Of a stretch of DNA of 64,000 nt, positions 26,790 to 64,000 are shown piece after piece. The stretch covers positions 386,714-450,713 of the forward strand of contig CAWHGL010000002.1 in assembly GCA_963828965.1 (NCBI GenBank), given 5' to 3'. Within the stretch, counting starts at the first letter, position 1; every line of letters begins with the position of its first letter. Under the pieces are notes generated by a model. The model did not search any database. It was not told the origin of the DNA and saw only the letters and a program-made list of their open reading frames with translations. Made by a program: the position numbers and the translations under genes. This DNA is from an uncultured Chloroflexia bacterium. GTDB taxonomy: Bacteria; Chloroflexota; Limnocylindria; Limnocylindrales; CSP1-4.

Positions 26790-27029
26790 GCAGGTCCTCA
26801 GCGGAGATGGGGGCAACGCACCCGGACCAGGCGCGTCACCGTGTGCAGGTCGCGTCCGAACCGCCCGGCCCGGACCGCGGCCATGATACCCGAGCACCGA
26901 GGTCGCGCGTGCTCCGCGCACCGGGTCCGGCGACGATCGAGCGGCCGGTCGCAGCGGTTCGTGGGACGATGACCGGCGATGCGCAGTGGACCACCGTCCC
27001 AACGTTCGTTCCGGGTCGGGCGCCCGAGC

Positions 27030-37088: not shown

Positions 37089-37983
37089 ATGTCCCCCCTT
37101 GCGAACGCGACCATCGCGACCGTCGGCTCCGGGGTCATGGCCGAGGCCATGATCGCGGGCATGCTCCGTGGCGCCCTCGTGGAGCCCGGTCAGGTCGTGG
37201 CCAGTCACCCGCGACCAGAGCGTCGCGAGGCGCTCGAGCGCGAGTACGGCATCCGGACCGTGGGCGGCAACATCGAGGCCGTCCAGGACGCGGACGTCAT
37301 CCTTCTGGGCATCAAGCCCCAGATGCTCTGGCGGGTCGGCCGCGAGATCGGGCCGCACCTTCGTCGCGGCCAGCTCGTCCTGTCCGTGCTCGCCGGGGCG
37401 ACGACCGACGGCGCTCACCGGGATCCTCGGCCACGACCAGGTCGTGCGCAGCATGCCGAACACCCCGGCGCGGCTCGGCAAGGGCATGACCGTCTGGTAT
37501 GCCACGCCCGAGACGACCGAAGAGCAGCGCGCCCAGGCGGCGGCGCTGCTCGGCGCGCTCGGCGTCCAGCTCGAAGTCGACGACGAGAAGATGGTCGCGA
37601 TGGCGACCGCGGTGAGCGGCACCGGCCCGACCTACGTCTTCCTCGTCATGGAGGCCCTCATCGACGCGGCCGTCCATCTTGGCTTCCCGCGCCACATCGC
37701 CCACGACCTCGTCATCGAGACGCTCGAGGGCTCGACGCTCTTCGCCAAGCAGTCCGGCATGCACCCGGCCGAGCTGCGCAACATGGTCACCTCGCCGGGC
37801 GGCACCTCGGCCGCGGCCCTCCACGAGCTCGAGAGCGGCCGGCTGCGGACCGTACTGAGCGAGGCGGTCTGGGCCGCGTTCCGTCGGACCGTCGAGCTCG
37901 GCGACCAGCTCGAGGCGACCGTTGACGGTGCGCCCAAGGCGGACAAGCCCACGCGGCCGCCCGAGCGCGGCGCGGCCCGTTGA
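37089..37983 (+). pseudogene. proC: pyrroline-5-carboxylate reductase; one frame break near 37398
   Basis: IATVGSGVMAEAMIAG...ILLGIKPQ is in ORF 36969-. VRSMPNTPARLGKGMT...SGTGPTYVFLVMEAL...VTSPGGTSAAAL is in ORF 37168-37983. Confidence 0.9.
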
Positions 37984-39041: not shown

Positions 39042-41041
39042 GCGGCGTGGACGACGAGGTCGCCGCGGCGCGGGCAGGGGCCGGCGGTCTGACCATCGAG
39101 TCGATCGTCGCGGTCGACGCGCCGCGCGAATTCCGGGTCCACCCGCGTGACCGCGTGATCGCGTACACGGCCGAGTCGGGCGGTGCCCGTCAGCTGTTCA
39201 CGCTCGCGCTCCGTGCCGGTGGTTCCACGCCGACGCAGGTGACCGCCTCGGAGCTGCCGGTCAGCGACCCGCAGTGGTCGCCCGACGGACGGCGGCTGGC
39301 CTTCGTCCGCGACGACGAGATCTGGGTCGTCGAGGCCGACGGCTCGCGGCTCGCCCGGGTCGTCGCCAAGCCCGGTGGCGGCCAGGCTCCGCGCTGGTCG
39401 CCGGATGGTCGCCGACTCGGGTTTCTGTCGCGTCGACGTGGCTGGGCGCAGGTCTGGGTCGTCGACGCCCCGGTGCCCCGGCGCGGCCGGCCGCAGCGAG
39501 ACCCGCGCCCGCCCGAGCCACGCGCCGTGACCGCCTCCGGCATCGACGTCGAGGCCTTTGCCTGGTCGCCGGACGGTGCCCGGCTCGCGATCGATGCGCA
39601 GCAGGCGCCCGAGCGGCTCGACACCGTGCAGATCGCCGTGGTGGACGTGGCCACTGGCGACGCCGAGATCGTCGCGGGCGCGGACAGCCACGACACGGGC
39701 GCCACGTGGCTGCCCGACGGGTCGCTGCTGTATGTCTCCGATGCCAGCGGTTGGTTCCAGGTCGTCCGCCGGACCCCGGGTGGCCGCGACCGGATCGTCC
39801 TGACCGACGGCGAGCGCGAACACGGCGACCCATCCGGCGGCGTCGGGTATGTCCCGTTGGCCTCTCCCGACGGCAGCCGCGTCGTGCACATCGAGGTCCA
39901 CGACGGCCTGATCGACCTCGTCGTTCGCGAGGTGGCTGCGGCCGCCGCGCCGAAGCGTGGGCGCGGCCGGCCTCCGAAGACGCCACGGACCGTGACCGCC
40001 GCCGGCGGGACGGCCCAGGTCATCTCCCCCTGGGACGGGGTCTGGCGATCGGTCGGCTGGCTGCCCGACGGCGCCTGGATCGCCGCCATCGGTGAGAGCG
40101 AGACGCGTCCACAGGATCTCTGGCTGCTGCCCGTCCCGGGTGTCGCGCCGGACGGGTCGCGGCCGCGTCAGGTCACCGACTCGCGACCGGCGGTGCTCGG
40201 TGCGGCTCTCGCCCCCGGCCGGGTCGCAGCCGGCGAGCGTGTCGCCTTCACCGCCCGTGACGGGCTCCGGATCGAGGGCACCCTGTGGCGTCCCGCCGAG
40301 GCCACCGGCAAGCGCGGCGGCCGGCGAGTCCCGACCATCATCTATCCGCACGGCGGCCCGACCTGGCAGGCGTATCGGGCGTTCTCGCCGTTCCGCTTGC
40401 TGCTCGCGCGCGAGGGCTACGCCTTCCTCGACGTCGACTTCCGGGGCTCCACCGGTTACGGACGGGCATTCCGTCAGGCCAATCACGACGAGTGGGGTCA
40501 CGCCGACGTCCAGGACCTGGTCGACGCCGGCGAATGGGTGCGCAGCCAGAGCTGGTCGGACGGCCGCCTCGGGATCTACGGCGGCTCGTACGGCGGCTAC
40601 ATGGTCCTGTGCGCGCTCGTCGAGGCACCGGCGATGTGGTCGGTCGGGGTCGACATGTATGGCGACTCGGAGATCGCCGAAAGCTTCCGCCACGGCGACC
40701 GGCCGGGCCGCCTCGACCTCCAGAAGATGATGGGCACCCCCGACGATCCGACGCGGAGCGCCGCATTCCGCCGCGGCTCGCCGATCTACCGGGCTGAGCG
40801 GATCGAGGCGCCGCTGCTCATCCTCCACGGCCGCAAGGACAAGCGGGTCGTCCCGCTGATGACGGAGAAGATGGTCGAGGCGCTCGAGATCGAGAGCAAG
40901 ACCTACGAGGTCCACTGGTACGACGACGAGGGCCACGGCTGGGAGCGCCGCGAGAACCGGCGGGATGCGTTCGAGCGGATCCTTCGATTCCTGCGGACCC
41001 ACCTGCCGCCCCTCGGGCCGGGCACCGCCGGCGGCGGCTGA
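39038..41041 (+). CDS. S9-family serine peptidase (prolyl oligopeptidase / acylaminoacyl-peptidase type) with an N-terminal beta-propeller
   Basis: PD40-like repeats (QWSPDGRRLAF, RWSPDGRRLGF, AWSPDGARLA). Catalytic GIYGGSYGGYM, plus D and H (DDEGHGW). The ATG overlaps the upstream stop (ATGA). Confidence 0.9.
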   Translation: MSGVDDEVAAARAGAGGLTIESIVAVDAPREFRVHPRDRVIAYTAESGGARQLFTLALRAGGSTPTQVTASELPVSDPQWSPDGRRLAFVRDDEIWVVEADGSRLARVVAKPGGGQAPRWSPDGRRLGFLSRRRGWAQVWVVDAPVPRRGRPQRDPRPPEPRAVTASGIDVEAFAWSPDGARLAIDAQQAPERLDTVQIAVVDVATGDAEIVAGADSHDTGATWLPDGSLLYVSDASGWFQVVRRTPGGRDRIVLTDGEREHGDPSGGVGYVPLASPDGSRVVHIEVHDGLIDLVVREVAAAAAPKRGRGRPPKTPRTVTAAGGTAQVISPWDGVWRSVGWLPDGAWIAAIGESETRPQDLWLLPVPGVAPDGSRPRQVTDSRPAVLGAALAPGRVAAGERVAFTARDGLRIEGTLWRPAEATGKRGGRRVPTIIYPHGGPTWQAYRAFSPFRLLLAREGYAFLDVDFRGSTGYGRAFRQANHDEWGHADVQDLVDAGEWVRSQSWSDGRLGIYGGSYGGYMVLCALVEAPAMWSVGVDMYGDSEIAESFRHGDRPGRLDLQKMMGTPDDPTRSAAFRRGSPIYRAERIEAPLLILHGRKDKRVVPLMTEKMVEALEIESKTYEVHWYDDEGHGWERRENRRDAFERILRFLRTHLPPLGPGTAGGG

Positions 41042-44560: not shown

Positions 44561-45493
44561 TCAGGGCGTCAGGTCGAACTGGAAGCTCTCCACGATCGGC
44601 ATCGCCTCGGCGAGGAAGGCCTCGTGACCGGCCGAGTGCAACGAGCCGAGGAAGATCACGATGACACCGCGATCGGGGGTGTCGAGCAGGATCACTCGAG
44701 CCCGTCCGTCCTTGAGGTCGAACCCCGGCGGGTCGCCAGGACAGCTCTCCGTCCACCCGGGATCGAGCTGGACATCGATCTGCTTGCCGGTCAGGCCACC
44801 GATCGTCACGTCGACCGGCTCGGATGTGGCAAGGGCGTCGTTGGCCACCACGTCGGCGACGATCTCGGCCGCCGTCGTGCCCAGATTGTCCTCCCACGCG
44901 TCGCACGTGAAGTACGGGTCGTTTTGCGGCCCCATGTGGATCGATCGGGCGATGTCCCCGGAGGCAGCGAACTCGGCCTGGTTCGCGGGCGTGTCCGGGA
45001 ATAGCGCGTAGAAGCCGACCTCATCCCCGCTGTTGACCCAACCCTCCGGAACCGTGAACGTGAAGCGGGGCACGAACGACTTGGTCGTCTGGCTGCCTGC
45101 CGCCAGGATGCCGGCGCCGGTACTCTCGCCCGTGTACCACGGCGGGAACACGGCGTTCGCCGATGGGGCCGTGGACGGCGACGATGACGCGGTCGGCGAT
45201 GGCGCAGCCGACGCGGGCGGCGATGGCGACGCGGTCGAGCCGCCGACGCCCGTCGAGGGCCCCGGCATGAGGTTCCAGGCCGCGACGGCGAGGATGAGGA
45301 CGGCCGCGACGGCCGCCCCGATCTTGATGGGCAGGTTCATGATTCGATGCCTCCAGGGGAGGCGCCACGCGCGACGTTGTCGTTGGCGGTCGATGCGGTC
45401 GGCGACCACGGTCACCACGCGATCGGGCATCCGGGTCGGACCGTCGTCGAACCAGCGCTCGAGGACGCGCTCGATGTCGGTCTGCTCGTTCAT
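44561..45493 (-). CDS. ECF-sigma-associated single-pass membrane protein (putative anti-sigma), intact
   Basis: The ATG overlaps the sigma stop (ATGA). N-terminus MNEQTDIERVLERWFDDGPTRMPDRVVTVVADRIDRQRQRRAWRLPWR, then a TM helix, a Ser/Pro linker and an extracytoplasmic domain of about 210 aa. Confidence 0.8.
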   Translation of the reverse strand: MNEQTDIERVLERWFDDGPTRMPDRVVTVVADRIDRQRQRRAWRLPWRHRIMNLPIKIGAAVAAVLILAVAAWNLMPGPSTGVGGSTASPSPPASAAPSPTASSSPSTAPSANAVFPPWYTGESTGAGILAAGSQTTKSFVPRFTFTVPEGWVNSGDEVGFYALFPDTPANQAEFAASGDIARSIHMGPQNDPYFTCDAWEDNLGTTAAEIVADVVANDALATSEPVDVTIGGLTGKQIDVQLDPGWTESCPGDPPGFDLKDGRARVILLDTPDRGVIVIFLGSLHSAGHEAFLAEAMPIVESFQFDLTP

Positions 45494-46041
45494 GCCGAGG
45501 TCCCTCCGACCGTCGAGACGCGTGCTTCCGCGTCGAGCGCGGCGCGCATGGCGCGATGGGCGTGATGGAGACGCGAGCGGATGGTCCCGGGCGGGCTGCC
45601 GAGCAGCTCGGCGATCTCGCTCGGGGCGTAGCCCACGTAGTGATGGAGCACGAGGATGGCCCGCTCCTCCGGCGTCAGCCGACGGAAGCCACGGTCCAGC
45701 TGATCCCGGTCGACGACACCAAGGAGATCGTCCGGGGCCGGCGGACCGTCCACCGGGAGCACCCGGAGGTTGGCTGCGCGACGACGCTCGCGCGTCGCCT
45801 GGGCGATGCAGACATTGGTGAGGACGCGATGGACCCAGGCATCGAACCGGTCCGGATCGCGGAGGCTCGGCAGGTCCCGCCAGGCGATCACCAGCGTGTC
45901 CTGCAGCGCATCCTCGGCCCGGTCGACATCCCGGAGGATCCGTTGGGCGATCGCGAAGAGCTGGTCGCCACGCGACCGGACCAGGTCCATGAAGGCCGAC
46001 TGGTCGCCCGCTTGCGCCTGCTCGACGAGATCGCGATCCAC
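45490..46041 (-). CDS. ECF RNA polymerase sigma-70 factor
   Basis: FDAWVHRVLTNVCI (region 2) and EIAELLGSPPGTIRSRLHHA (region 4.2). GTG start. Confidence 0.9.
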   Translation of the reverse strand: MDRDLVEQAQAGDQSAFMDLVRSRGDQLFAIAQRILRDVDRAEDALQDTLVIAWRDLPSLRDPDRFDAWVHRVLTNVCIAQATRERRRAANLRVLPVDGPPAPDDLLGVVDRDQLDRGFRRLTPEERAILVLHHYVGYAPSEIAELLGSPPGTIRSRLHHAHRAMRAALDAEARVSTVGGTSA

Positions 46042-46094
46042 CGCTTGCCTCGCTCGAGGTGACGTCCATCGGGGACGTCGTCCGCACGTATTGG

Positions 46095-46125
46095 TAGATG
46101 GTGCGCGCCGAGCGTTGGAACTTCA
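46095..46125 (-). promoter_or_regulatory. putative ECF-type promoter (TGAAGTTCC ... CATCTA), weaker match
   Basis: Same -35/-10 spacing (24 nt) as the other sigma upstream regions, but the -35 lacks one base and the -10 is CATCT. Confidence 0.4.
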
Positions 46126-46404
46126 CGGATGTGGGTGCGGCTCATCGTCGGCCGACGAGGCCGGCAGGCCTCAGCTGCCGCAGGCGGCCACGGGACCAAA
46201 GGGCAGCAAGGTCGCCTTGCGGGCGCTGATCCGATCGATCAGGGCCGCGCCGTCACGTCGAACGTTCGCTCCTCCGGTTCGGGGCGGCCGTGCGACGTCC
46301 CAGGCGAGACGGCGGGCGTTGCGCCCCGCCCTAGACTGGCGTCCTGTCGGCGGTCAACGCCGACGACAGGCGGACCCGGGGCGCGAGGCGGAGCGAGGAC
46401 AAGG

Positions 46405-48722
46405 GTGCGGCGGACCGAGACCGTCCGAAGGATCGCGACATGGGGGGTCCTGGCGGCAGCGCTCGCCGGGGCCATCCTCTTCGTGGTGCTCCGCGCGACG
46501 ACACCGTCCGATGGCGCGCGGGTCGCGTTCTATGGCAATGGCTGGTCGGACCTCGGGGTCACGATCGACCCGATCGACGCGCCCGCTGCAGGACTCCAGG
46601 CCGGCGACCTCGTCACGGCGGTCGCGGGGCGATCGGTGGATGCCTGGCTTGGCGCAACGCTGGACGGCTCGGTGCCACGCCCCGTCGGCGGCGAACCCAT
46701 CGCCTACGACCTTGTCCGGGCCGGCGCCCCGGTCCGGGCGACGGTCACCTGGACGCCACCGGCGATCGGTGCGACCCTGCTGGCCGGCTGGAGCGTGCTG
46801 CTCTTCTCCGTGGCGGTGGCGGCCGTCGCGGCCTTCGTCTTCGCCCGGCGACCTGATGAACCCGCTGCGCTCGCCCTCGTGCTCGCGGCCTGCGGCGCCG
46901 CCGGCAGCAGCGTCCCGTGGTTCCTCGGCACGACCGTCAGCGACATCGTCGACGCCGGTCCGTTCCTATTCCACACCTTGCTGACCGGGCCGGTCTACAT
47001 GCTCCTGTGGCCGGCGGGGGTGCATCTCGCGCTCACGTTCCCACGGCCGGCCCCGGCCGTGACCCGCCACCCGTGGCTCATCCCCGCCATCTACGCGGCC
47101 TGCCTGGGCGGGTACGGTCTTGCGCTGGCCGTCGGCCGGGCGACCACCACGACGGCCCTCGCGTGGGTCGGGACGTGGCCGATCGCGCAGGTCGTGGTGG
47201 TCGTCCCGGCGCTGGCCGCGGGCCTCGTCATCGTCGTGCGAACGTACCGGCGAACGACGGATCCCGCGGGTCGGGCAAGCATCCGCTGGGCCACGCTGGG
47301 CGTGGTCGTCGCGGCCACGATCGGGCTGTTCGGCTACATGCTTCCCGAGCTGATCGTGCAGCGACCCCTCCTGCCCGAATCGTGGATCGGGTTGACGGCG
47401 CTGCCGATCCCGCTCGGCATCGCGGCCGGGATCCTGTTCGACCGTCTCTTCGACATCGATGTCGTCGTCCGCCGCACCGTCGTCTACGGTGGCCTGACCG
47501 TGGGCGTGGTCGCGTGCTACGTGGCGGTGGCCTCGGCCATCACGGCCGTGGTCGGCAGCGAGCATGGGTTCGGCGTGTCGCTCTTCGCCACGGGCGTGGC
47601 CGCCCTCGTGGCCCTGCCCCTGCGCGACGGCCTGCAGCGGGCGGCCAGTCGATACCTGTACGGCGAGCGGGACGAGCCGTGGCGCGCGATGCGCCGGCTC
47701 GGCCAGCGCCTCGAACTGGCGGCGGAACCGGAGCGGGTCTTCCCGACCATCGTCGACACGGTCGCCGACGCCCTTCGCCTGCCCTACGTCGGTCTGGCGC
47801 TGGTCGCGACCGACGGACGGCTCGATGTCGTCGCGGAGCACGGGCGTCGCCAGTCCGACCTCGTGATCGTGCCGATCGTCGACGGCGCGGCGCGGGTCGG
47901 CAGCCTCGACCTGGGCATCCGGGCGGGCGAGCGCGGCTTCCGTTCCGATGAGCTCGAGCTCGTCGACGACCTGGCTCGACAGGGCGCCGTCGCCATCCGG
48001 GCGGTCCGGCTTCGTGCCGATCTTGCGCGATCGCACGAGCGCCTGCTGCTCGCGCGCGAGGAGGAGCGCCGGCGGCTTCGCCACGATCTGCACGACGGGC
48101 TCGGGCCGTCGCTGGCGGCGATCGGTCTGCGCGCGGAGGCGTCGGCCGAACTGCTCTCGACGGACCCCGACGCCGCGCGCCATCTCCTCGACGAGCTGGG
48201 TGCCGACGTCCAGACCGCGCTCCTCGACGTCCGCCGCCTGGTCGATGGGTTGCGCCCGCCGGCCCTCGACGAGCTCGGGCTGATCGGCGCCATCGGTCAG
48301 CAGGCGACCCGGCTGGAGGGTCCGACGAGCGCCGGACCCGGCCCGACCATCACGGTCGTCGGCACGCCGGATCCGTTGCCCGACCTGCCGGCCGCGGTGG
48401 AGGTCGCCGCGTACCGGATCGCCATCGAGGCCGTCACCAACGCCGTCCGCCACGCCTCGGCGCGGACCTGCCGGGTCAGGGTCAGCGCGACCGATGAGCT
48501 TCGTGTCGAGGTCGTGGACGACGGTCGTGGCCTGGCCGCCGGGCAGACGCCCGGGACCGGGCTCGAGTCGATCGAGGCGCGCGTGACCGAGCTGGGCGGG
48601 TCGTTGCGGATCGACCGGCCACGGGGCGGCGGTACGCGACTCGTGGCCAGCCTGCCGATCGGCGGGGGACCGCCCCGGCTGGAGTCTCGATCGACGGGGC
48701 CCGGGAGGCGGCGGGCACATGA
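46405..48722 (+). CDS. NarL-partner (HisKA_3) sensor histidine kinase with an N-terminal PDZ-like domain and a polytopic membrane region
   Basis: GTG 46405 with a GAGGA SD. H-box LRHDLHDGLGPSLAAI, then an HATPase_c domain. As written, the frame runs on into the regulator gene. A frame slip in the G run near 48665 would end it at TGA 48720-48722, overlapping the regulator ATG. Confidence 0.8.
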
Positions 48723-49392
48723 CGGAGCTGCCCGCCCCGATCCGGCTCGTGATCGTGGACGACCACCCGTCGTTCCGCTCGGGACTGCGAGCGCTCCTCG
48801 CGACCGCCGCCGACATCGACGTGATCGGCGAGGCGGCCGGCGGCGACGAGGCGGTCATCTCGGTCGGGCGGCTGCAGCCCGACGTCGTCCTGATGGACGT
48901 GTCGATGCCCGGCGGCGACGGGATCGAGGCGACCGCACGCATCGTCGAGGCCTCGCCCCACATCGCGGTCGTCGTGCTGACCATGGACGGTGGCGACGGC
49001 TCGGTGGTCCGAGCGCTCCGCGCCGGCGCTCGAGGGCTACGTCCTCAAGGGCGCCCAACGCGCCGAACTGCTCCGCGCCATCCAGCGGTCGCGGCCGGCG
49101 ACGCGGTCCTCGGGCCCGGCGTCGCCCGCCGGTTGCCGGCCTACCTCTCGGCCGCCACGACGGAGGCGGCCGCCGCGTTCCCCGAGCTGACCGACCGGGA
49201 GCGGGAGATCCTGGGCCTGGTCGCGCGCGGGCGGTCGAACGCCGAGATCACGAGCCAACTGGTCCTGCGCGCAAGACCGTGCGCAACCACATCTCGAACA
49301 TCTTCGCGAAGCTCGGAGTCCGCGACCGCGCCGAGGCCATCGTCCGCGCCCGCGAGGCCGGTCTCGGGATGGAGGGCGGCCGGCCGTCCTGA
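48719..49392 (+). pseudogene. NarL/LuxR-family response regulator; three frame breaks (approx 49030, 49090, 49265)
   Basis: The receiver (IRLVIVDDHPSFRSGL...VVLMDVSMPGGDG) is in ORF 48719-. GYVLKGAQRAELLRAIQ is in ORF 48990-. The HTH tail KTVRNHISNIFAKLGVRDRAEAIV is in the frame of ORF 46129-49392. Confidence 0.85.
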
Positions 49393-55114: not shown

Positions 55115-55918
55115 TCAACGCGCGGTGGCGACGCCTGGGTGCAGCACGATGACATCGATCGGGTCATGCCGGCCGCGCACGTCGAGGTGACGACGCTCCG
55201 CGACGGGATCGCTGCGACCCGCGGCTTCGGCGGCGGCGTCGCTCACGAGCAGCTCGCCGGCCGCCGCTGACGAGGCGAGGCGGGCGGTCGTATTGACCGC
55301 GTCGCCGAGGGCCGTGAAGTCGTCGACCGCGCCGATCGGTCCGGTCGCGCCGACGTAGGCGTCGCCGGTGTGGACCGCGGCCCCAAGGGGGATCGGGCCC
55401 ATCGGCGTGGCGTCCGGCACGCCGACCCGTGCCAAGAGGTCAAGGCCGGCGTCGATCGCCGCGGCTGCGTGATGCGGCCCGGACACGCCGCCGAAGAACA
55501 GCCCGATGACCTCGTCGCCGACGAACTTGTCGACGAGGCCGTCATGGCCCAGGACCACGTCCGAGGCGATGCGGTAGAACGCGTCGAGGAAGGCGTGGAA
55601 GTCGCGGGTCGAGAGCCGCTCCCCGATGGTCGTCGACCCGCGGACATCGGCGAACAGCAGGGTGACCGGGATCTCGGCACCGGTGACGCCCGACTTGCGG
55701 AAGCCGTTGATGCAGCGGTTGCAGATCGCCGGGTTGCCCGGGAACCGACCGAACCCCACGTGCTTGAGCACCGATCCGCCCGCCCCACCGAACGGCGCCG
55801 CGCAGAGCTTGCAGCGCGGCGAGGTCGGGATCCGCTTCATCGCCTTGCGGATGGCCACGAGGTCGCCGTTCTCGCCGATCAGGATGGACTTGAAGTCCGC
55901 CTCGCTCGGTGCAGGCAT
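55115..55918 (-). CDS. class III adenylate/guanylate cyclase with an N-terminal CxxC...CxxC zinc-ribbon
   Basis: CKLCAAPF...ICNRC, then VTLLFADVRGSTT...DKFVGDEVIGLFF...GDAVNTTARL. Confidence 0.85.
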   Translation of the reverse strand: MPAPSEADFKSILIGENGDLVAIRKAMKRIPTSPRCKLCAAPFGGAGGSVLKHVGFGRFPGNPAICNRCINGFRKSGVTGAEIPVTLLFADVRGSTTIGERLSTRDFHAFLDAFYRIASDVVLGHDGLVDKFVGDEVIGLFFGGVSGPHHAAAAIDAGLDLLARVGVPDATPMGPIPLGAAVHTGDAYVGATGPIGAVDDFTALGDAVNTTARLASSAAAGELLVSDAAAEAAGRSDPVAERRHLDVRGRHDPIDVIVLHPGVATAR

Positions 55919-55972
55919 GGGCGCACTGTACGACGTGACCGTGACGCGATGACGACGGCCGTCGCGCCGCCG

Positions 55973-56003
55973 TGAACGTTCGGCCCGCGGCCTCCCGTCA
56001 TAG
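55973..56003 (+). promoter_or_regulatory. putative ECF-type promoter (TGAACGTTC-N17-CATAGT)
   Basis: Lies 47 nt upstream of GTG 56050. Matches the shared motif. Confidence 0.6.
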
Positions 56004-56049
56004 TGGGTAGTCCGCGGCCATCGAGGCTGCGGTCACCGGAGGGGTCCAG

Positions 56050-56601
56050 GTGGATCTCGACCTCGTCGAACGGGCCCGCGCGGGTGACCGAGAGGCCTTC
56101 ACCGTCCTGGTGCACCAGGTCAGTGATTCCCTCTACGCCGTCGCCCACCGGATCCTGCGCGACACGGGCCTGGCCGAGGACGCGCTGCAGAACGCTCTCG
56201 TGCTGGCCTGGCGACGGCTCCCCAAGTTGCGGGACCCGGAGCGGTTCGAGGCCTGGATCCATCGGATCCTCGTCCACGCCTGCTACGACGAATCGCAGCG
56301 GGCGCGCCAATGGACGGCGCAGGTCCGCGTCCTGCCCATCGATGGGCCATCGACGCCGGACGACAGCGCCGCCTTCGCCGACCGCGACGAACTGGAGCGG
56401 GCGTTCCGCCGGCTCACGGTCGAACAGCGGGCGGTCTTCGTGTTGCATCACTACCTCGGGCTGCCCCTCGTGGAGGTCGCCGAACTCCTCGAGATCCCCG
56501 CGGGGACGGCCCGATCGCGACTCCATTACGCCATCGCCGGCCTGCGCGACGCCATCGAGGCCGAGCGCGAGCCCGTCATCCAGGAAGGACGTCTCGCATG
56601 A
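56050..56601 (+). CDS. ECF RNA polymerase sigma-70 factor
   Basis: FEAWIHRILVHACYD and EVAELLEIPAGTARSRLHYA. GTG start with a GGAGGGG SD. Confidence 0.9.
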   Translation: MDLDLVERARAGDREAFTVLVHQVSDSLYAVAHRILRDTGLAEDALQNALVLAWRRLPKLRDPERFEAWIHRILVHACYDESQRARQWTAQVRVLPIDGPSTPDDSAAFADRDELERAFRRLTVEQRAVFVLHHYLGLPLVEVAELLEIPAGTARSRLHYAIAGLRDAIEAEREPVIQEGRLA

Positions 56602-57902
56602 ACGACGACCGCACGCTCGAGCGCGCCGCCCGGTCGTTCATCGAGGTCGGCCCGACGCGGGCGCCGGACCACGCCGTGGATGCGGCGCTGCTCCGGATCG
56701 CTTCGACCACACAGGAACGGGCGCTTCGGCTCCCGTGGAGGTTCCCGACCATGCCACTCGCCGCTCGCCTCGTGGCGATCGCGGTCGTGGGGGCGCTCGT
56801 GCTCGCTGGTCTCGCCCTGCTGGGCGGGACGGGTGGCACGGCTCCGGCGACTGCTCCACCCAGCAACCAGGCCATCGTGGCGGCCTCGGCCTCGGCCACC
56901 GCCGCACCCGTCCCGACCACCGACACCGTCGACTACTCGGATATTCCCGGGCGGATCCTCGTCGAGCATCTGGGCAACGCCCTCGACCTGTCCGAGTCCA
57001 CGGCGACGGACTATCACCCGGACACGCGCCGCTTCTACTTCATGGATCCGACCGACATGACCGCCGCGACCGTCGTCGAGTTCCTGCCCGGCCAGCCGTC
57101 GACCGGCAAATCGGCCGGCGACATCTCGAGCGACTACACGAAGATCGTCTTCCAGGACTGGGCCGACCAGACGCGTCTGTACGAGGCGAACCTGGACGGG
57201 ACGGGGTTCCACAAACTCCCGGTCGACTGCACCTGCGCGCTGCTCTACCCCGACTACGATCCGACCGGCACCAAGGTCGTCTACGTCCGGCTCGAGGGTA
57301 GCGAGAGCTGGCTGGAGATCCTCGATCTCGCGACCGGCACGACCACCAAGCTCGATGCGACCCTCGGCCCGCGGGCTAACGCCGTGCCCGAGCAGCCGGC
57401 ATGGTCGCCGGACGGCAAGAGCATCGCCTTCAGCCGCATCACGTGGCCGGCCGGCGCCGACCCGATCGTCGGGACGGTCCACTACGGCGACGTCGCGCCG
57501 ACCTCGGGCGTGCTGTCGCTGCTGGACGTGGCGACGGGAACGGTGACCGACCTGGAGCCCGCGACGTCCGGATTGATCCCCGGCGATGCGAATTGGTCAC
57601 CGGACTCGAGCACCATCGTGTTCGTGACCGGTCCGTTTTCGACGACTGGCAGCGTGGGCGCGGACTTCGACCATCAGTCACTGGCGATCCAGCGGGACGG
57701 TTCGGGCCTGAAATCCGCTGGTGCCGGGCTCTCGCCGGAATATCTGCCAGACGGGTCGCACATCCTCGTCCAGGACGATGTGTTCAGGATGATGCGGCCG
57801 GGCGGCAGCGAACTCCGGCCGGTGAACGTCAACGGGATGGATGTGAGCGACCTGGCACAGGGCTTCGCCTACGTCGGCCACTGGATCCCGGACCAGCCCT
57901 GA
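56598..57902 (+). CDS. ECF-sigma-associated single-pass membrane protein with a TolB-like (PD40) beta-propeller
   Basis: ATGA overlap. N-terminus MNDDRTLERAARSFIEVGPTRAPDHAVDAALLRIASTTQERALRLPWRFP, then a TM helix. PD40 repeats AWSPDGKSIAFS and NWSPDSSTIVF. Confidence 0.85.
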   Translation: MNDDRTLERAARSFIEVGPTRAPDHAVDAALLRIASTTQERALRLPWRFPTMPLAARLVAIAVVGALVLAGLALLGGTGGTAPATAPPSNQAIVAASASATAAPVPTTDTVDYSDIPGRILVEHLGNALDLSESTATDYHPDTRRFYFMDPTDMTAATVVEFLPGQPSTGKSAGDISSDYTKIVFQDWADQTRLYEANLDGTGFHKLPVDCTCALLYPDYDPTGTKVVYVRLEGSESWLEILDLATGTTTKLDATLGPRANAVPEQPAWSPDGKSIAFSRITWPAGADPIVGTVHYGDVAPTSGVLSLLDVATGTVTDLEPATSGLIPGDANWSPDSSTIVFVTGPFSTTGSVGADFDHQSLAIQRDGSGLKSAGAGLSPEYLPDGSHILVQDDVFRMMRPGGSELRPVNVNGMDVSDLAQGFAYVGHWIPDQP

Positions 57903-57966
57903 CCTGACGACCGCGGATGACGACCGGCCTCCTCTCGGGGCCGGTCGTCTCCATCCGAGCGATATC

Positions 57967-57996
57967 TGAACGTTCCATGACAGGCCGGCTCCATAG
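57967..57996 (+). promoter_or_regulatory. putative ECF-type promoter (TGAACGTTCC-N15-CCATAGT)
   Basis: Lies 43 nt upstream of ATG 58039. It overlaps the alternative GTG at 58000, which argues for the 58039 start. Confidence 0.6.
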
Positions 57997-58038
57997 TCTG
58001 TGAGGCGGCCAGATGTCCCGCCACCGGTCGGAGCAGCC

Positions 58039-58593
58039 ATGCGTGCCGAGCTCGTCGAGCGAGCAAGACAGGGCGACCACGAGGCGTTCAACGCCCTCGC
58101 GGTGGCGAGTGTCGATCGGTGCTATGCGCTCGCCTATCGGATCCTGCGCGACCCGACTCGCGCCCAGGACGCGACGCAGCAGGCGCTACTGGGGGCGTGG
58201 CGCGATCTGCCGACGCTGCGCGACCCAGAGCGGTTCGACGCGTGGCTGCATCGCCTCGTCGTCAACGCCTGCTACTCGGAGGCTCGCGGCGACCGACGCT
58301 GGAATGCGCGGATCCGCGCGATCCCGCCCGCGATGTCCGCGTCACCGGATGTGGCGAGCGGCGTTGCGATGCGCGAGGAGCTCTCGGAGGCCTTTCAGCG
58401 ACTGACGCCCGAACAACGTGCGGTCGTCGTCCTCCATCACCATCTCGGCTATCGGCTGACCGAGATCGCCGAGACGCTGGGGATCCCCGAAGGTACGGCC
58501 CGCTCGAGATTGCACTACGCCGTCCGTGAGCTACGAGCCGTCCTGGACAGCAAGCAGGATGCCCCCGCGTCGACGACGGAGCGATCGGCATGA
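58039..58593 (+). CDS. ECF RNA polymerase sigma-70 factor
   Basis: MRAELVERARQGDHEAF..., FDAWLHRLVVNACYS and EIAETLGIPEGTARSRLHYA. GGAG 6 nt upstream of the ATG. Confidence 0.9.
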   Translation: MRAELVERARQGDHEAFNALAVASVDRCYALAYRILRDPTRAQDATQQALLGAWRDLPTLRDPERFDAWLHRLVVNACYSEARGDRRWNARIRAIPPAMSASPDVASGVAMREELSEAFQRLTPEQRAVVVLHHHLGYRLTEIAETLGIPEGTARSRLHYAVRELRAVLDSKQDAPASTTERSA

Positions 58594-59872
58594 CCGCCAA
58601 CGACCCGCTGTTCGACCAGCGCATCAGCGACTGGCTGGAGGCCGACCCGGACCAGGCGCCGCCGGTCGTCCTGGAGACGATCGTGGCTGCCTTCCCGTCG
58701 ATCCCGCAACGGCGCCGGACCCGATCCTTGCCGCGCGCCGGCAGCTCATGGCGGACCAGGGTCGTCTGGATCGCGGCGGTGGTCGCACTCGCGCTGATTG
58801 CCCTTGCCCTGCTGAGCGGGGTCGGGCGGACGCCTCGCCCCACCAGGACCGTGCCATCAGCACCCGTCGCGGTGGCTCCGGTCCCCTCGACATCCTCCCC
58901 GCGCCCCAGACCGACCCCGACCGTGTCGCCCCTCCAGGGGACCGGCCTGATCGTCTTCGAACATTTCACGTCTGGACTCGGCACGCGGATCGAGTTCCTG
59001 CAGGCGAATGGCCTCGGCAAGGAGCTGCTTCCGGACATCCCGGGCCACCAGGAGCGCCCGGCCTGGCGGCCGGACGGCACGAAGCTCGCGTTCGCCGGCT
59101 GGGATCCGCAAGTCGAAGGTGCTCGCCAGGCGATCTGGGAGTCGGACGCCACCGGGGCGAGTCCGACGCTCCTGACGGTCGGCTGCGAGCCACCGGTCTG
59201 TGTCGAGGAGTGGGATCCGTCCTATGCCGTCGATGGCACGCGGATGGTCTTCGTGCGCAGTGCGGGTCCGGCTGACGCGCCCGACCTCGACGGTCATCGC
59301 CATCCGCGACCTCGCGACCGGGGCGGTGCAGGAGATCGAGTCGACGCGGGTCGATGAGAGCGAGGGCTTCGTCGATCATCCGAGCCTGTCGCCGGATGGT
59401 CGTCGCATCGTCTATGCCCGCATCCTCACCGATGCGGACGGCAGCGCGACCGACGCATCCGTCCTCGTCGCCGACGTCGACGGCGGTGACCCCACGGCGC
59501 TGACGCCCGATGGCTGGGAGGCCGGCGACCCGTCCTGGTCACCGGACGGCCAGCGGATCCTCTTCGACCGCGAGCCCACCCACTACTGGTTCGGCGGCGG
59601 CAAGGGTAGTGGTGAGAACACGTTCATCTACACGATGGCTCCGGACGGTTCTCAGGTGACCCAGCTCACCGACTACGGCACCGACTTCGATTCGGCCGGA
59701 TCGCCGAGCTGGACCGCCGACGGCTCGCAGATCCTGTTCGTTGACTTCGCCCTCCAGGCCATCGGAACGCCCGGACATCGACGTCATGGCGCCGGACGGC
59801 ACCGACCGCGCGTCGGTCGCCCGCTACGGAGACTGCTGCCGGTGGTACCCCGTCCAGCAGCCGACGCCATGA
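58590..59872 (+). pseudogene. ECF-sigma-associated single-pass membrane protein with a TolB-like beta-propeller; two frame breaks (approx 59270, 59770)
   Basis: ATGA overlap. N-terminus MTANDPLFDQRISDWLEADPDQAPPVVLETIV...PQRRR, then a TM helix. PD40 repeats (SLSPDGRRIVYA, SWSPDGQRILFD, SWTADGSQILF) in ORF 59200-. The last 34 codons (PDIDVMAPDGTDRA...QQPTP) are in a third frame ending at TGA 59870-59872. Confidence 0.8.
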
Positions 59873-60093
59873 ACGCCCCAGATCGAGCCATTCGACCGTT
59901 GGAGCCACGATCCGGGGGCCCGTGATCCGCGACGATCGGATCTCTTCTGCCATCGCCGACACGGTCGTGGCCGTCGACCAGCGACCGCCGGCCGCACTGC
60001 AAGCCCACCTGCTCGCGCCTCGCGTCTTCGCGCGCGGCGCGTCGCCAGAACGCGCTCCATCCAGGGCGCCAAGTTCATGGAGGGATGATCCCA

Positions 60094-61101
60094 ATGGCAT
60101 CCACGTCAGCGGTCCATGCGCCACGGATCCGCAGTGTGGTGGCGCTCGCGCTCATCGCGCTGTCGATGCTGCCCGGTCAGGCCGCCGCGGCACGCGGCTC
60201 CATCGTCAAGGTCTATGGACAGGACATCTATTGCCCGATCGATACTCCCGATGCAGGCGGATACTTCTTCGCGATCACGCGGGACCGGACCGATGGGGCC
60301 GGCTTTGCTTCCGCCGATCTGTACATCGAGCCGACCGATCCGAACGCTGCGGCCATCGGTGGCGGGATGGACGACCCTGACCTGTCGAGCGGCGGGATCC
60401 AGGCGACGTTCGAGATGCGCGATGCCAGCACGGACGAAGGCGTTGGCTCGGCGACCATCTCGGCGACATTCGTCGGGACGGGTGCGTACCGGGCGCGACG
60501 CATCTACCAGGACTCGGTCCAGAAGGGCCTGTACGAAACCTACACGGTCGAGGGATCGATCCAGGTCACGACGACGGGCCCGGACTACACCATCGACATG
60601 GCGAGTTGCGACGCGAGTGGCCAGGATCGCATGGACCAGGTGCACGCTCCAAGCGGCCCTAAGCCATCTGGCACGCCGCCCGCCAACGATGCACCGGCGA
60701 GAGCGACCGCCGTCGCGACCGGCACGCAGATCCAGCAGTGGACCGGGGGTGCCGTCTTCGACCCGGAGGCACCGTGCATCATGGGCGAGGGCGACGACAC
60801 CTTCGAGTTCGGGTTCGGTCGCACCGTCTGGTTTTCGGTGCAGGGCACGGGTGGCCCCATCACGTTTGACCCCCGAGGGTCCGACTTCGACACAGTGGTT
60901 GCCGCGTACGCCGTGACGAGCGGGCTCCAGCAGGTCGGCTGCGTGGACGATGATGCCGACATCCACACTGCCCAGGGTCCGCTGACGTTCGACACCCAGG
61001 CCGGCACGACCTATCTCATCCAGATCGGCGGCGTCCTCGGCCTCCTCGGGTCCGACACGACGGACCCGCAATGGGGGCGCCTCCGACTCAAGGTCGAGTA
61101 G
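60094..61101 (+). CDS. secreted hypothetical protein; the C-terminal about 130 aa resemble a pre-peptidase (PPC)-like beta-sandwich
   Basis: Signal peptide MASTSAVHAPRIRSVVALALIALSMLPGQAAA. GGAGGG lies 9 nt upstream of ATG 60094. The C-terminal pattern is NDAPARATAV...WFSVQGTGG...GSDFDTVVAAY...GCVDDD. The domain call is from memory only. Confidence 0.6.
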   Translation: MASTSAVHAPRIRSVVALALIALSMLPGQAAAARGSIVKVYGQDIYCPIDTPDAGGYFFAITRDRTDGAGFASADLYIEPTDPNAAAIGGGMDDPDLSSGGIQATFEMRDASTDEGVGSATISATFVGTGAYRARRIYQDSVQKGLYETYTVEGSIQVTTTGPDYTIDMASCDASGQDRMDQVHAPSGPKPSGTPPANDAPARATAVATGTQIQQWTGGAVFDPEAPCIMGEGDDTFEFGFGRTVWFSVQGTGGPITFDPRGSDFDTVVAAYAVTSGLQQVGCVDDDADIHTAQGPLTFDTQAGTTYLIQIGGVLGLLGSDTTDPQWGRLRLKVE

Positions 61102-61149: not shown

Positions 61150-61181
61150 GACTGGCCTCCTCGCACACGAGGAGGCCAGTC
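61150..61181 (+). promoter_or_regulatory. perfect 14-bp stem / 4-nt loop hairpin that sequesters the hmgA Shine-Dalgarno
   Basis: GACTGGCCTCCTCG-CACA-CGAGGAGGCCAGTC. The right arm contains GAGGAGG and ends 6 nt before ATG 61187. No U tract follows. Confidence 0.7.
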
Positions 61182-61186
61182 GTCCG

Positions 61187-62410
61187 ATGTTCTACGTCGC
61201 CCACGGCAGCATCCCGCCCAAGCGCCATACCCAGCATCGAGCGCCCGACGGCTCGCTCTACGCCGAGGAGCTGTTCGGCGTCGAGGGGTTCACCGGCCGC
61301 AGTTCCCTGCTGTATCACGTGGTCCCGCCGACCCGGACCCACAAGATCGAGCCGGTCGCCGAGCTCGTCCTCGAGGAGGCCGACGACGGCTACCACCACC
61401 ACCGACTGATCGACGCCGCCGGCGTCGAGCCGCATGGCGATGCGGTCACGGGCCGGATCCCGTTGTTCTTCAACAACGATGTCGTGATGGGCGTGGTCCG
61501 CCCCGCCGAGGCGATGCCGGAGACCGTCTTCTACCGCAACGGCGAGTCCGACGAGATGCTCTTCGTCCACGAGGGGACCGGGCTGCTCGACACGGTCTTC
61601 GGGCCGCTTCGGTATGGCCCCGGCGACTACCTCGTCCTCCCGATCGGGACGACCTGGCGGCTGGAGCCCGACGCCGACTCGGTCCAGCGGATGCTCTACC
61701 TCGAGTGCCCGTCCGAGCTCGAACCGCCCAAGCGTTACCGCAACGAGTACGGCCAGCTGCTCGAGCACGCGCCCTTCTGCGCGCGCGACATCCGCATCCC
61801 GGACGAGGTGGCGCCGCGGACCGAGGAGGGCGCCTTCCGGGTCCACGTCAAGATGCGCTCGAGGCTGACCGCCTACCACTACGCGACGCATCCGTTCGAC
61901 GTGGTCGGCTGGGACGGCTATCTGTGGCCATACGCCTTCAACATCGGCGACTTCGAACCGATCACCGGGCGTGTCCACCAGCCGCCGCCGGTCCATCAGA
62001 CGTTCGCGGCGCGCAACTTCGTCGTGTGTTCGTTCGTGCCGCGCAAGTTCGACTACCACCCGCTCGCGATCCCGGCGCCCTACAACCACTCGAACATCAA
62101 CTCGGACGAGGTCATCTACTACGTCGCGGGCAACTTCATGAGCCGCCGCGGCGTGGGCATCAGCTCATTCACCCTGCATCCGGCCGGGATCCCGCACGGC
62201 CCGCACCCCGGCACGGCCGAGGCGTCCATCGGCAAGGAGACGACCGAGGAGCTCGCGGTCATGGTGGACACGTTCCACCCGCTCCGGATCACGCAGCAGG
62301 CGGCCGCTCTGGAAGACGGCCGCTACCCGTATTCGTGGCTGCCGGCCGAGGACGCCTCCGGCGAGGCCCGTGAGCTCCACGAGCGCGGACCGGAGGCGTT
62401 CCCCGACTGA
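61187..62410 (+). CDS. hmgA: homogentisate 1,2-dioxygenase (short, about 400-aa bacterial type)
   Basis: MFYVAHGSIPPKRHTQHR...LYAEELFGVEGFTGRSSLLYH... and the cupin core. Family recognised from the N-terminal and central motifs. Confidence 0.85.
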   Translation: MFYVAHGSIPPKRHTQHRAPDGSLYAEELFGVEGFTGRSSLLYHVVPPTRTHKIEPVAELVLEEADDGYHHHRLIDAAGVEPHGDAVTGRIPLFFNNDVVMGVVRPAEAMPETVFYRNGESDEMLFVHEGTGLLDTVFGPLRYGPGDYLVLPIGTTWRLEPDADSVQRMLYLECPSELEPPKRYRNEYGQLLEHAPFCARDIRIPDEVAPRTEEGAFRVHVKMRSRLTAYHYATHPFDVVGWDGYLWPYAFNIGDFEPITGRVHQPPPVHQTFAARNFVVCSFVPRKFDYHPLAIPAPYNHSNINSDEVIYYVAGNFMSRRGVGISSFTLHPAGIPHGPHPGTAEASIGKETTEELAVMVDTFHPLRITQQAAALEDGRYPYSWLPAEDASGEARELHERGPEAFPD

Positions 62411-62425
62411 CGGTCGACCGTCCGC

Positions 62426-63880
62426 CTACGGGCTCCACGAATAGAAGCGGAGGGCGTACACGTCGTCGACGGTCACGAGCGCGGCCTCGTGGCTGCCGTC
62501 GACAGCGATGACGTACAACCCACTGCCGTCGGCATCGCCGCCCTCGGCCAGGAGCCACTTGGAGTCCGGCGACCAGACGGCGCAGCACGAACCCCCGGTC
62601 AACGACGCGACCTTGTGAGCGTCGCTGCCGTCGGGGTGCGAGATCCACACGTCCCGGATCCCGCCCATCGGCCGAGCGACGTCATGGGCGATCCACTGCC
62701 CGTCGGGCGACCAATGGGCGCTCGTCTTGAAGGACGTCTCGTCGCTGATCGGCGTCGCCTGGCCGGCGGCGACGTCGACGACATACGCCCGGGACGTCGG
62801 ACTGACGCCGTCGCCCGCCTTCGAGAATGCCGAGAAGGCGACACGAGTGCCATCCGGGGACCAGCTGGCCCCGGAGCCGAAGGCCTCGCTCGCGAGGACG
62901 AGGGTGTCGTTCGGATTCAGTCGTCGCGCCTCGCCGGGTCGATAGGTGCCGGCCCCGGATGCGATACCTGCGGTCGTGCCCTTGTCGATGACGTAGAGGT
63001 CGCCGAGCCGGCCGAGCTCGTCCGATATGCCCGAGTCTCGGATGAAGATCAGCTTCGAGCCGTCCGGCGAGAACGCGAGTGGGATGTCCCTCGCGCCGTC
63101 GGGCGCGCCCGTCATCCGGACGAACTCCCCGATCGCCAGGCCGCCCCCGTTGTCGAGCGACAGGTAGATCCCGTCCTTGCGGGGATCCGACTGGGACACG
63201 CCTTCCAGGGCGAAGTCGAAGCCGCCCCACGCGCCGGGGTAGAGCTGGACCCCTGGCGACGCGTTCGGCCCAGTCATCGTGGCCGCGGTCCACGCCTCGG
63301 AGAATCCGCCCGACTGGGGCATGACGGGCGCGAACTGCACGACATCCTGCTCGCCCTCGAAGTCGGACGAGAACATCACGGTCCCGCCATCGGGCGAGAC
63401 GCTCGCACAACAGACCGATGGGGCGTGGATGTCCCGGAGATCGGTGCCGTCCGGGCGGATCGCCAGCAGAGCTGGCCCATCGCCGTTGTCGACCCCGAAC
63501 ACGATCGTGCCGGGGGCGTCGATCCCCGGGTTGCCGGCCGTCACGCCGCGCACCACCGCCGACGGGACCGGGACCGTGACGGATGCGACCGGTGTGGGCA
63601 GTGGCGTGACCGGGATCCGCGCGTCGTCGCCCTTGATGGGTCGGCCGGACGTCATCAGGACGCCACCGATCAGGACGGACACCAGCGCTGCGCCGACGAG
63701 GAGGAGTGCGAACGATCGAGGCCCAGCGAGGCCGCTCGTCCTTCGCGCCCACCATCGGCGGCGCTGGGCAGTTCGGCCGGCCGTGTCGAGGATCGCCTCG
63801 ACCGAGCGGTCGGGAAGCCGATCGATGCCGTCGTCGAACCAGTCTTCGAGGACCGGCGCGAGATCGTCGTTGCGGGTCAT
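62426..63880 (-). CDS. ECF-sigma-associated single-pass membrane protein with a TolB-like beta-propeller, intact
   Basis: ATGA overlap with the sigma stop. N-terminus MTRNDDLAPVLEDWFDDGIDRLPDRSVEAILDTAGRTAQRRRWW, then a TM helix. PD40 repeats (AFSPDGSKLIF, SWSPDGTRVAF, HWSPDGQWIAH, VWSPDSKWLLA). Confidence 0.85.
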   Translation of the reverse strand: MTRNDDLAPVLEDWFDDGIDRLPDRSVEAILDTAGRTAQRRRWWARRTSGLAGPRSFALLLVGAALVSVLIGGVLMTSGRPIKGDDARIPVTPLPTPVASVTVPVPSAVVRGVTAGNPGIDAPGTIVFGVDNGDGPALLAIRPDGTDLRDIHAPSVCCASVSPDGGTVMFSSDFEGEQDVVQFAPVMPQSGGFSEAWTAATMTGPNASPGVQLYPGAWGGFDFALEGVSQSDPRKDGIYLSLDNGGGLAIGEFVRMTGAPDGARDIPLAFSPDGSKLIFIRDSGISDELGRLGDLYVIDKGTTAGIASGAGTYRPGEARRLNPNDTLVLASEAFGSGASWSPDGTRVAFSAFSKAGDGVSPTSRAYVVDVAAGQATPISDETSFKTSAHWSPDGQWIAHDVARPMGGIRDVWISHPDGSDAHKVASLTGGSCCAVWSPDSKWLLAEGGDADGSGLYVIAVDGSHEAALVTVDDVYALRFYSWSP

Positions 63881-64000
63881 GCTGGTCGACCTCCCGCCAC
63901 GGCAAGGCGTGCGTCGGCCTCGAGGGCCGCGCGAAGCTCGCGGTGGGCGTAATGCAGGCGGGAACGGACGGTCCCGGCCGGGATGCCGAGGACCTCGGCG
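63877..64000 (-). CDS. ECF RNA polymerase sigma-70 factor, 3' end only (runs off the right edge)
   Basis: The minus-strand translation is AEVLGIPAGTVRSRLHYAHRELRAALEADARLAVAGGRPA*, which has the same region 4.2 as the other five sigma factors. Confidence 0.85.
   Translation of the reverse strand, partial: AEVLGIPAGTVRSRLHYAHRELRAALEADARLAVAGGRPA

Follow-up and report, generated by a model that had tools for sequence, protein, structure and literature searches.

An array of ECF sigma factor genes, each paired with a probable single-pass anti-sigma factor gene, in an uncultured Limnocylindria genome

Putative anti-sigma factors have been assigned to 114 of the 157 groups of extracytoplasmic function (ECF) sigma factors, usually encoded at position +1, and in 82 groups they have one transmembrane (TM) helix (PMC7826278). 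Most of them match no Pfam domain of the anti-sigma factors that have been studied, and the regions concerned are mostly group-specific (PMC7826278). Only about 36% of putative anti-sigma factors belong to class I (PMC7406223), in which the sigma-binding domain is a three-helix bundle with a fourth helix, whereas class II domains (CnrY, NepR) form a two-helix clamp, in which helix 1 is expected to contact sigma4, and helix 2 to contact sigma2 (PMC6101532, PMC7406223). In class III, which is confined to Streptomyces and represented by RsbN, residues 1-91 contain three conserved helices (PMC6101532). For the class Limnocylindria, a 2026 study counts sigma factors by habitat in passages that mention neither ECF nor anti-sigma factors (PMC13212565). 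Here we analyze 64,000 nucleotides (the window) of an uncultured Chloroflexia bacterium placed in the Limnocylindria (contig CAWHGL010000002.1, positions 386,714 to 450,713), in which six ECF sigma genes (s1 to s6) are each followed by a gene for a membrane partner (p1 to p6). We conclude that the window probably holds a lineage-specific array of canonical ECF sigma and single-pass anti-sigma pairs from an uncultured, high-GC soil Limnocylindria genome.

The window contains six sigma genes, each overlapping the gene of its partner. A six-frame scan of the window (G+C content of 71%) with hidden Markov models (HMMs) gave six matches to ECF sigma factors and six to the N-terminal module of the partners and none further, in agreement with the six pairs listed in an earlier note that was made from this DNA sequence. 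The sigma genes are s1 (15644-16207, minus strand, 187 aa; sigma HMM 4e-91), s2 (19002-19553, minus strand; 3e-98), s3 (45490-46041, minus strand, 183 aa; 3e-94), s4 (56050-56601, plus strand, 183 aa; Pfam Sigma70_r2 3e-13 and Sigma70_r4_2 4e-12), s5 (58039-58593, plus strand, 184 aa; Pfam r2 and r4_2, sigma HMM 1e-95) and s6 (63877-64000, minus strand; 1e-13 at model positions 144-183), of which the last 40 aa are in the window and the rest lies past its end. All five sigma genes that are wholly inside the window have unbroken frames. As the earlier note had said, the sigma stop codon and the partner start codon overlap as ATGA, in six of six junctions, and a Shine-Dalgarno sequence lies 8-10 nt ahead of the partner ATG, within the GAAGGAC-type codons of the conserved sigma C-terminus EGRxA.

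Judged by their domain content, the sigma factors are ECF (group 4) members of the sigma-70 family, with sigma2 and sigma4 domains alone. Sigma70_r2 and Sigma70_r4_2 are the sole Pfam domains on these proteins of 183-187 aa, and there is no region 3. They scored 80 bits against TIGR02937 (sigma70-ECF; cut-off of 42.9), and their best curated match was TIGR02983 (SigE-fam_strep) at 109 bits, under the 141-bit cut-off. Pairwise identity among them is 45-66%, the recognition helix of region 4.2 (GTARSRLHYA) is well conserved, and the solved structures nearest to s4 are SigW, SigL, AlgU and SigE, all at about 1e-14.

The partners begin with a common module of about 45 residues that belongs to a large, unnamed family of uncultured soil Chloroflexota, and we regard it as a new family inside a well-known scheme. 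Its consensus is M-T-D-D-R-S-L-E-R-A-A-R-S-W-L-E-x-G-P-T-x-A-P-D-R-A-V-E-A-A-L-L-R-I-E-T-T-P-Q-E-R-D-L-R-I-P-W-R-x-P-x-M, with R12, W17, G21, P22, A25, P26, D27, L34, Q42, R44, W52, R53 and M57 near-invariant. Among 1.84 billion cluster representatives, scanned exhaustively with HMMER, 4,119 carry the module at E≤1e-3, and 1,342 of these reach E≤1e-10; a word-indexed search with a six-sequence module profile returned 11 short fragments and is uninformative on family size. In the best 150 representatives the module lies at residues 1-64 of proteins of 76-493 aa, with three exceptions that are frameshift fusions to a sigma factor. Source labels, including those from a cluster look-up of 10 representatives, read 'hypothetical protein' or 'WD40 repeat protein'. 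In the window the module is clear in p4 (module HMM 6.5e-28) and p6 (2.5e-12) and divergent in p1 (E of 0.006 against an HMM biased toward p4).

The module matched none of the named families or solved anti-sigma chains that we searched. No Pfam model covers it in any of 146 family representatives, the six window copies had no Pfam or NCBIfam match at E≤1, and the N-terminal 75 residues had no match to a Pfam family at E≤0.2 or to an anti-sigma family even at E≤10. Two module profiles run against all Protein Data Bank (PDB) sequences matched no anti-sigma chain, including the partners in 4CXF, 5UXX and 6DXO; tblastn against 72,556 plasmids gave chance-level matches only, and we found no published description of the module. 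The earlier note had staked its proposal on the module matching no established anti-sigma family, and in Pfam, NCBIfam and the PDB none was matched. Two of its emphases do not stand. It had pointed to the absence of a zinc motif, which does not set the module apart, as about 44% of class I domains lack one (PMC7406223); it had also found the lack of a named family notable, and this is the rule among ECF groups (PMC7826278). An N-terminal module that cannot be placed is the expected case, because most anti-sigma factors of ECF groups match no named family.

Genes for the module lie directly downstream of ECF sigma genes in related genomes. We searched 185,579 species, each represented by one genome, for two peptide patterns taken from the p4-type module, and the host range given here applies to the patterns of that subfamily only. 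The scan yielded 54 confirmed loci in about 50 species-level genomes, all of them metagenome-assembled genomes (MAGs) of Chloroflexota, one of which is labelled Actinomycetes; the labels include Candidatus Limnocylindria/Limnocylindrales, 'uncultured Chloroflexia' and 'Anaerolineaceae'. An ECF sigma open reading frame (ORF) was directly upstream of the module gene in 51 of the 54 loci, with the ATGA overlap in 48, and a second pair was within 2.5 kb in about 14, so that the survey of relatives proposed in the earlier note bore out both the linkage and the tandem or nearby arrangement of pairs. The same organization was found for an orthologue of p3 on a 647-kb contig, where a 183-aa sigma gene lies directly upstream with a 4-nt overlap. 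That contig also carries a sigma and PD40 pair, 4 kb from the p3 orthologue and adjoining an HgmA_N gene.

The neighbors of this second pair have counterparts in the window. There, a gene for a predicted secreted protein of 338 aa with no Pfam match (60085-61101, plus strand) is followed by an HgmA_N gene (61151-62410, plus strand), which we take to be homogentisate dioxygenase N-terminal-like, and then by p6; the HgmA_N gene beside the sigma and PD40 pair on the unrelated 647-kb contig (L057, 2679-3602) mirrors this arrangement. The synteny of HgmA_N with a sigma and PD40 pair is thus conserved.

The module is predicted to form two short helices on the cytoplasmic side of a single TM helix. 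By consensus the helices are DRSLERAARSWLE and AVEAALLRIETTPQ, joined by GPTxAPDR, and in both of them hydrophobic residues are spaced i, i+3/4, i+7. A basic stretch rich in arginine and tryptophan (PWR) follows, and then one hydrophobic helix rich in alanine and glycine. AlphaFold2 modeled p3 with a mean predicted local distance difference test score (pLDDT) of 83.8, placing helices at residues 3-17 and 22-36, then the basic stretch, and the TM helix at 54-75; after a disordered linker of proline, serine and alanine, the C-terminal domain (115-310) had a pLDDT above 93. In P0281, a natural fusion of sigma and partner, the model placed the module helices at 196-209 and 216-228, followed by the TM helix. 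The predicted module helices are thus 14-15 residues long and joined by a conserved GPxxAPD turn. Because positive charges precede the TM helix, the topology is probably N-in/C-out. The alignment and the models bear out the common N-terminal module, free of Cys and His and followed by one hydrophobic helix, that the earlier note had described. Its view that the module lies outside the known anti-sigma classes held in part: no family was matched at E≤10, and the two predicted helices fit class II.

We considered whether the module could be a twin-arginine translocation (Tat) leader and rejected it. In p3 and p6, QRR(A/R)W before the hydrophobic segment resembles a twin arginine, but the family consensus is T-P-Q-E-R-D-L, unlike the Tat motif S/T-R-R-x-F-L-K. 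In Q-E-R-D, the flanking positions have E in 62% of sequences and D in 59%; where a second arginine would stand, D is present in 59% and R in 19%. Since a twin arginine is not conserved across the family, the module is not a Tat leader.

The sigma operons share an ECF-type promoter. The window has four copies of the pattern GAACG-N18-21-CATAG, against an expectation of 0.06, and all of them are upstream of sigma genes (s1, s2, s4 and s5), 40-60 nt 5' of the start codon. The s4 promoter has the form TGAACGTT-N15-CCGTCATAG and extends over 55968-56011 (plus strand; position weight matrix (PWM) score of 49.5), with -35 element TGAACGTTC, a spacer, -10 element CCGTCATAG and then the block TGGGTAGT. 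The s5 promoter (57962-58004, plus strand; PWM score of 14.2) consists of TGAACGTTC, a spacer and CTCCATAG, and the s2 promoter (19599-19642, minus strand; PWM score of 25.6) of TGAACGTTCC, a spacer and ACTCATAG. Upstream of s1, the pattern count identified GGAACGAAT, a spacer and GCCATAG (16250-16290, minus strand). A variant upstream of s3 (46096-46135, minus strand), read directly from the sequence, has TGAAGTTCC, a spacer and CACCATCT, and the p3-type orthologue in L057 has TGAACGCTC, a spacer and CCATTG. In orthologous loci the spacer is variable, while cTGAACGTT(C/T) and CCGTCATAGTGGGTAGT hardly change; the promoter blocks were matched exactly in 43 of the 54 loci, and near-matches can be seen in most of the remaining upstream regions that were listed. 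A PWM scan of the window found no promoter target beyond the sigma operons. Because the promoter is of the classical ECF GAAC/CGTC type, autoregulation is indicated, and we infer from the motif that each operon promoter is used by its own sigma factor and probably by the paralogues of that factor.

Two further features adjoin the s4 promoter. Across species, conservation of the block TGGGTAGT (55997-56011, plus strand), which directly follows the -10 sequence CGTCATAG, is about 90%. As a -10 element would not need to extend so far, the block may correspond to the transcription start or discriminator or to a further binding site. On the other side lies a divergent gene (55115-55918, minus strand), whose product has a class III adenylate/guanylate cyclase domain and a Cys-rich N-terminal segment (CxxC...CxxC); the s4 promoter is located in the intergenic region between this gene and s4.

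The s4 mRNA has a 5' leader hairpin whose pairing is conserved through compensatory changes. It lies between the -10 element and the Shine-Dalgarno sequence (56013-56031, plus strand) and has six base pairs, five of which show compensatory changes among 31 orthologous leaders. In the alignment, 94.6% of cells were paired, versus 82% in shuffles and 33-45% in slid controls, and the covariation score of 0.40, versus 0.18 in shuffles, was reached by none of 500 shuffles. GC-rich hairpins are likewise predicted in the leaders of s1 (16228-16248), s2 (19573-19599) and s3 (46061-46079), all on the minus strand; in the s5 leader a comparable hairpin was not clearly predicted. The s1 to s4 hairpins have loops of 5 nt, and the paralogous leaders differ in sequence with the hairpin in the same position. 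The hairpin could stabilize the 5' end of the mRNA or regulate translation.

The outer parts of the partners belong to two superfamilies. Three partners have the module, one TM helix and a PD40 propeller: p4 (56598-57902, plus strand, 434 aa, intact), p5 (58590-59872, plus strand, with two frame switches) and p6 (62426-63880, minus strand, 484 aa, intact). PF07676 (PD40) was above its cut-off in all three, in both frames of p5. The E-values for PD40 and TolB were 1e-7 and 8e-11 (below cut-off) in p4 and 2e-14 and 2e-15 in p6; because the scores are far under the TolB equivalog cut-offs, we call these domains PD40 propellers, if TolB-like ones, and not TolB. In p3 (44561-45493, minus strand, 310 aa, intact), the module, TM helix and disordered linker are followed by a domain at 115-310 that is, in the predicted model, probably a Mog1/PsbP/LpqN-like sandwich. 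Foldseek matched it to PsbP, Apa, LpqN and DcrB with a probability of 1.0 and E of 2e-5 to 3e-3, at target-normalized TM-scores of only 0.44-0.60 and a root-mean-square deviation of about 7-8 Å. The 579 homologues found for p3 are all annotated as hypothetical. The remaining partners, p1 (14407-15647, minus strand, with one frame switch and the divergent module) and p2 (17714-19005, minus strand, with at least five switches), have the module, a TM helix, a further Cys-containing subdomain of about 140 aa and a PsbP-like domain.

The earlier note had separated p1 and p2 from p3 and so counted three kinds of output. The p3 domain, however, has its homologue in the C-terminal half of the p1/p2 family (hhalign probability of 98.9%, E of 2e-17), with two Cys of p1 aligned at or beside two Cys of p3; since these are one superfamily, there are two output types (PD40 propeller and PsbP/LpqN-like), and only the assignment of PD40 to p4, p5 and p6 is retained from that count. 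A PsbP-like domain is present in 43 of 82 family representatives of at least 250 aa, and the other outer domains among the 146 representatives include PD40, other propellers, DUF3558 (2 of 146), DUF5074 and cupredoxin, with many unmatched. The more general idea in the note, that a conserved short module is joined to differing extracytoplasmic domains, is upheld by this variety of PD40, PsbP-like, DUF3558 and cupredoxin domains.

We propose the following scheme, which builds on the observed gene order, coupling, promoter, module family, predicted helices and topology and outer-domain identity, and in which sigma binding, clamp geometry, the signal and the mechanism of release are inferred. An ECF-type promoter (TGAACGTT, spacer, (C)GTCATAG) would drive each operon and be recognized by the operon's own sigma factor and probably by its paralogues. 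Translation of the partner would be coupled to that of the sigma factor through the ATGA overlap and the Shine-Dalgarno sequence inside the EGRxA codons. The partner would be an N-in/C-out membrane protein with two amphipathic helices in its N-terminal stretch of about 45 residues, and these helices would clamp sigma2 and sigma4, as class II domains do, keeping the sigma factor at the membrane. The extracytoplasmic PD40 propeller or PsbP/LpqN-like domain (with its conserved Cys pair) would sense an envelope cue, and the sigma factor would then be freed, probably when the TM segment, rich in Ala and Gly, undergoes regulated proteolysis, turning on its own operon and other targets.

Downstream of p1, by 58 nt and on the same strand, is a gene for a retropepsin-like aspartyl protease (Asp_protease_2, with a DTGS motif; 13477-14349, minus strand). 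It might belong to the p1 operon, and cleavage of a partner by its product would be pure speculation.

Several findings weigh against this scheme. In sequence the module resembles no solved or curated anti-sigma domain, the window yielded no site-1 or site-2 protease, and three of the six partners are frame-disrupted, which, if genuine, would leave their sigma factors unregulated. In the fusion model the module had a pLDDT of about 75, compared with 63-75 without a sigma factor, the predicted TM-score was 0.38, and Foldseek matched the sigma part alone. That the fusion model and Foldseek supplied no sigma-module interface favors the possibility that the partner is not an inhibitor but an envelope protein co-transcribed under sigma control, its N-terminus serving as a membrane-insertion or export signal (such as a long Tat-like leader), a sorting tag or a docking site for some other cytoplasmic protein; PsbP/LpqN-like and PD40 domains are found in ordinary lipoproteins and periplasmic proteins as well, and p3 and p6 have the sequence that superficially resembles a twin arginine. 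We consider this distinctly unlikely, because that feature gives way to Q-E-R-D in the family consensus, because a mere export signal should not preserve a two-helix module of 45 aa, with about 13 near-invariant residues, on cargo domains that are unrelated to one another, and because adjacency and coupling to a sigma gene, as in 51 of 54 loci, is the signature of an anti-sigma factor (PMC7826278). It is very unlikely, in our estimation, that the module binds the sigma factor as a dual or positive regulator that tethers and primes it (a pro-sigma role, as proposed for FecR-type proteins). FecR-like regulators have the same architecture (an N-terminal sigma-binding part, one TM helix and an outer sensor), and our findings do not separate inhibition from activation, but the FecR domain (PF04773) was matched in none of the window partners or the 146 family representatives, the window has no TonB-dependent receptor partner, and simple inhibition is the commoner mode. 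Finally, class I sequences are very divergent, and many are without the zinc motif (PMC7406223), which leaves room for a highly diverged or truncated class I domain missed by sequence profiles. We find this highly improbable: the TM segment is preceded by only about 45 residues, with two predicted helices, where class I needs a three-helix bundle and a fourth helix (PMC6101532), and neither the zf-HC2, RskA and RseA models nor PDB chains gave even a weak match at E≤10.

The frame disruptions of p1, p2 and p5 bear on whether the array is intact. Their lengths (1241, 1292 and 1283 nt) are not divisible by 3 and none of them is a single ORF; the earlier note had presented each as one gene by stitching frames across the switches. 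Reading in three frames placed the p1 switch at about 14610-14640 and the p5 switches at about 59280 and 59770, with the PD40 matches of p5 split between two frames, and left the 3' end of p2 uncertain, as its stop codon cannot be fixed. If genuine, the disruptions would indicate a decaying array with three sigma factors orphaned or constitutively active, and it is consistent with this that at least eight frame switches fall in three of the six partners and that the five whole sigma genes are intact. We judge decay unlikely. An extra C in a run of C at 18927 (p2) is absent from L001 and L002, two independent short-read metagenome contigs that are 98-99% identical to the window over about 600 nt, including s2, and in which the gene is in frame. 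The sequence flanking the switches still aligns to intact homologues (433 and 428 aa), and P0260, an intact homologue, spans the first p5 switch. An unrelated gene, for a NarL/LuxR-type response regulator (about 48716-49390, plus strand) after a HisKA_3 kinase, has at least three switches within about 650 nt, as a result of which the kinase ORF (46129-49392) seems to run on to 1087 aa with a GerE tail. Because this gene is disrupted too, indels appear to be window-wide and are probably assembly errors. Among the close relatives, many are MAGs from long reads, and these contain sigma genes that are broken up or artefactually joined to the partner gene. The sequence comparisons thus make it most likely that the indels in p1, p2 and p5 are assembly errors of the long-read type rather than pseudogenization.

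Similar errors have entered the databases. Public sigma-partner 'fusion proteins' (P0156, P0162, P0259 and P0281-P0292; 230-490 aa) come from long ENA contigs and were created artefactually by frameshifts close to the stop codon of the sigma gene; the linker is an out-of-frame reading of the sigma C-terminus. Indels in long-read MAGs seed false fused, split and truncated proteins into public databases. Two other overlaps of ORFs in the window that we suspected of being frameshifts were rejected, as they are separate, ordinary genes: at 23947-27557 (minus strand), cytochrome oxidase subunit I (COX1) and a subunit II (COX2) fused to a cupredoxin domain, and at 37926-41041 (plus strand), a tandem DinB/MDMPI protein and a PD40 and S9 prolyl oligopeptidase protein.

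An array of sigma and anti-sigma pairs, the reading that we prefer, leaves the understanding of ECF signaling itself unchanged. Its value is in an unannotated family of thousands of proteins, worthy of a name, that is tied to ECF signaling in an abundant uncultured soil lineage and that would let annotators spot anti-sigma factors in Limnocylindria. A candidate sigma-binding module of about 45 aa, together with a defined promoter, may also be of use in synthetic biology. A more ambitious version, which we hold to be rather unlikely, is that the module is an independently evolved sigma-binding domain (a fourth class, or a convergent two-helix clamp) that radiated into thousands of Limnocylindria variants within a fan-in network. 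Because the paralogous sigma factors keep near-identical -35 and -10 motifs and recognition helices, many envelope sensors could act on one shared promoter type, and the array would then be a converging sensory network instead of a set of insulated pairs.

The partners combine features of several described anti-sigma systems. Like RseA-sigmaE, RsiW-sigmaW and RskA-sigmaK of class I, the window pairs have the partner gene directly 3' of a probably autoregulated ECF sigma gene and a predicted N-in, single-pass protein with an extracytoplasmic sensor, and the Ala/Gly-rich TM segment would be compatible with site-2 cleavage. The cytoplasmic part, however, is about half as long as in class I, has two predicted helices and not four, and is without HxxxCxxC or a Pfam match; with two predicted helices in about 45 residues, where about 80-90 residues are needed, the module falls outside the class I definition. 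Class II is similar in that CnrY and NepR (the latter acting with EcfG/PhyR) are short cytoplasmic two-helix units, as the module is predicted to be, and CnrY is followed by a membrane segment. There is no sequence homology to CnrY or NepR, the phylum differs, and the fit to class II is one of predicted secondary structure only. CnrY of Cupriavidus metallidurans, which acts on CnrH, is a small protein that works with a separate periplasmic sensor, CnrX, whereas in the window large outer sensor domains are part of the same protein as the module.

RsbN-BldN of Streptomyces is a precedent for a lineage-restricted, single-pass anti-sigma factor that is unlike any other and was first recognized by gene context (PMC6101532). 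RsbN has three helices, in contrast to the two predicted in this module from Chloroflexota, which gave no match to 6DXO. The putative anti-sigma factors of the ECF Hub (Casas-Pastor et al. 2021, PMC7826278) are likewise encoded by conserved +1 genes and have one TM helix and a group-specific cytoplasmic region without a Pfam match. The host lineage, known almost entirely from recent MAGs, was probably barely sampled in that classification. As in the ECF Hub groups, the paralogues in the window share a promoter motif.

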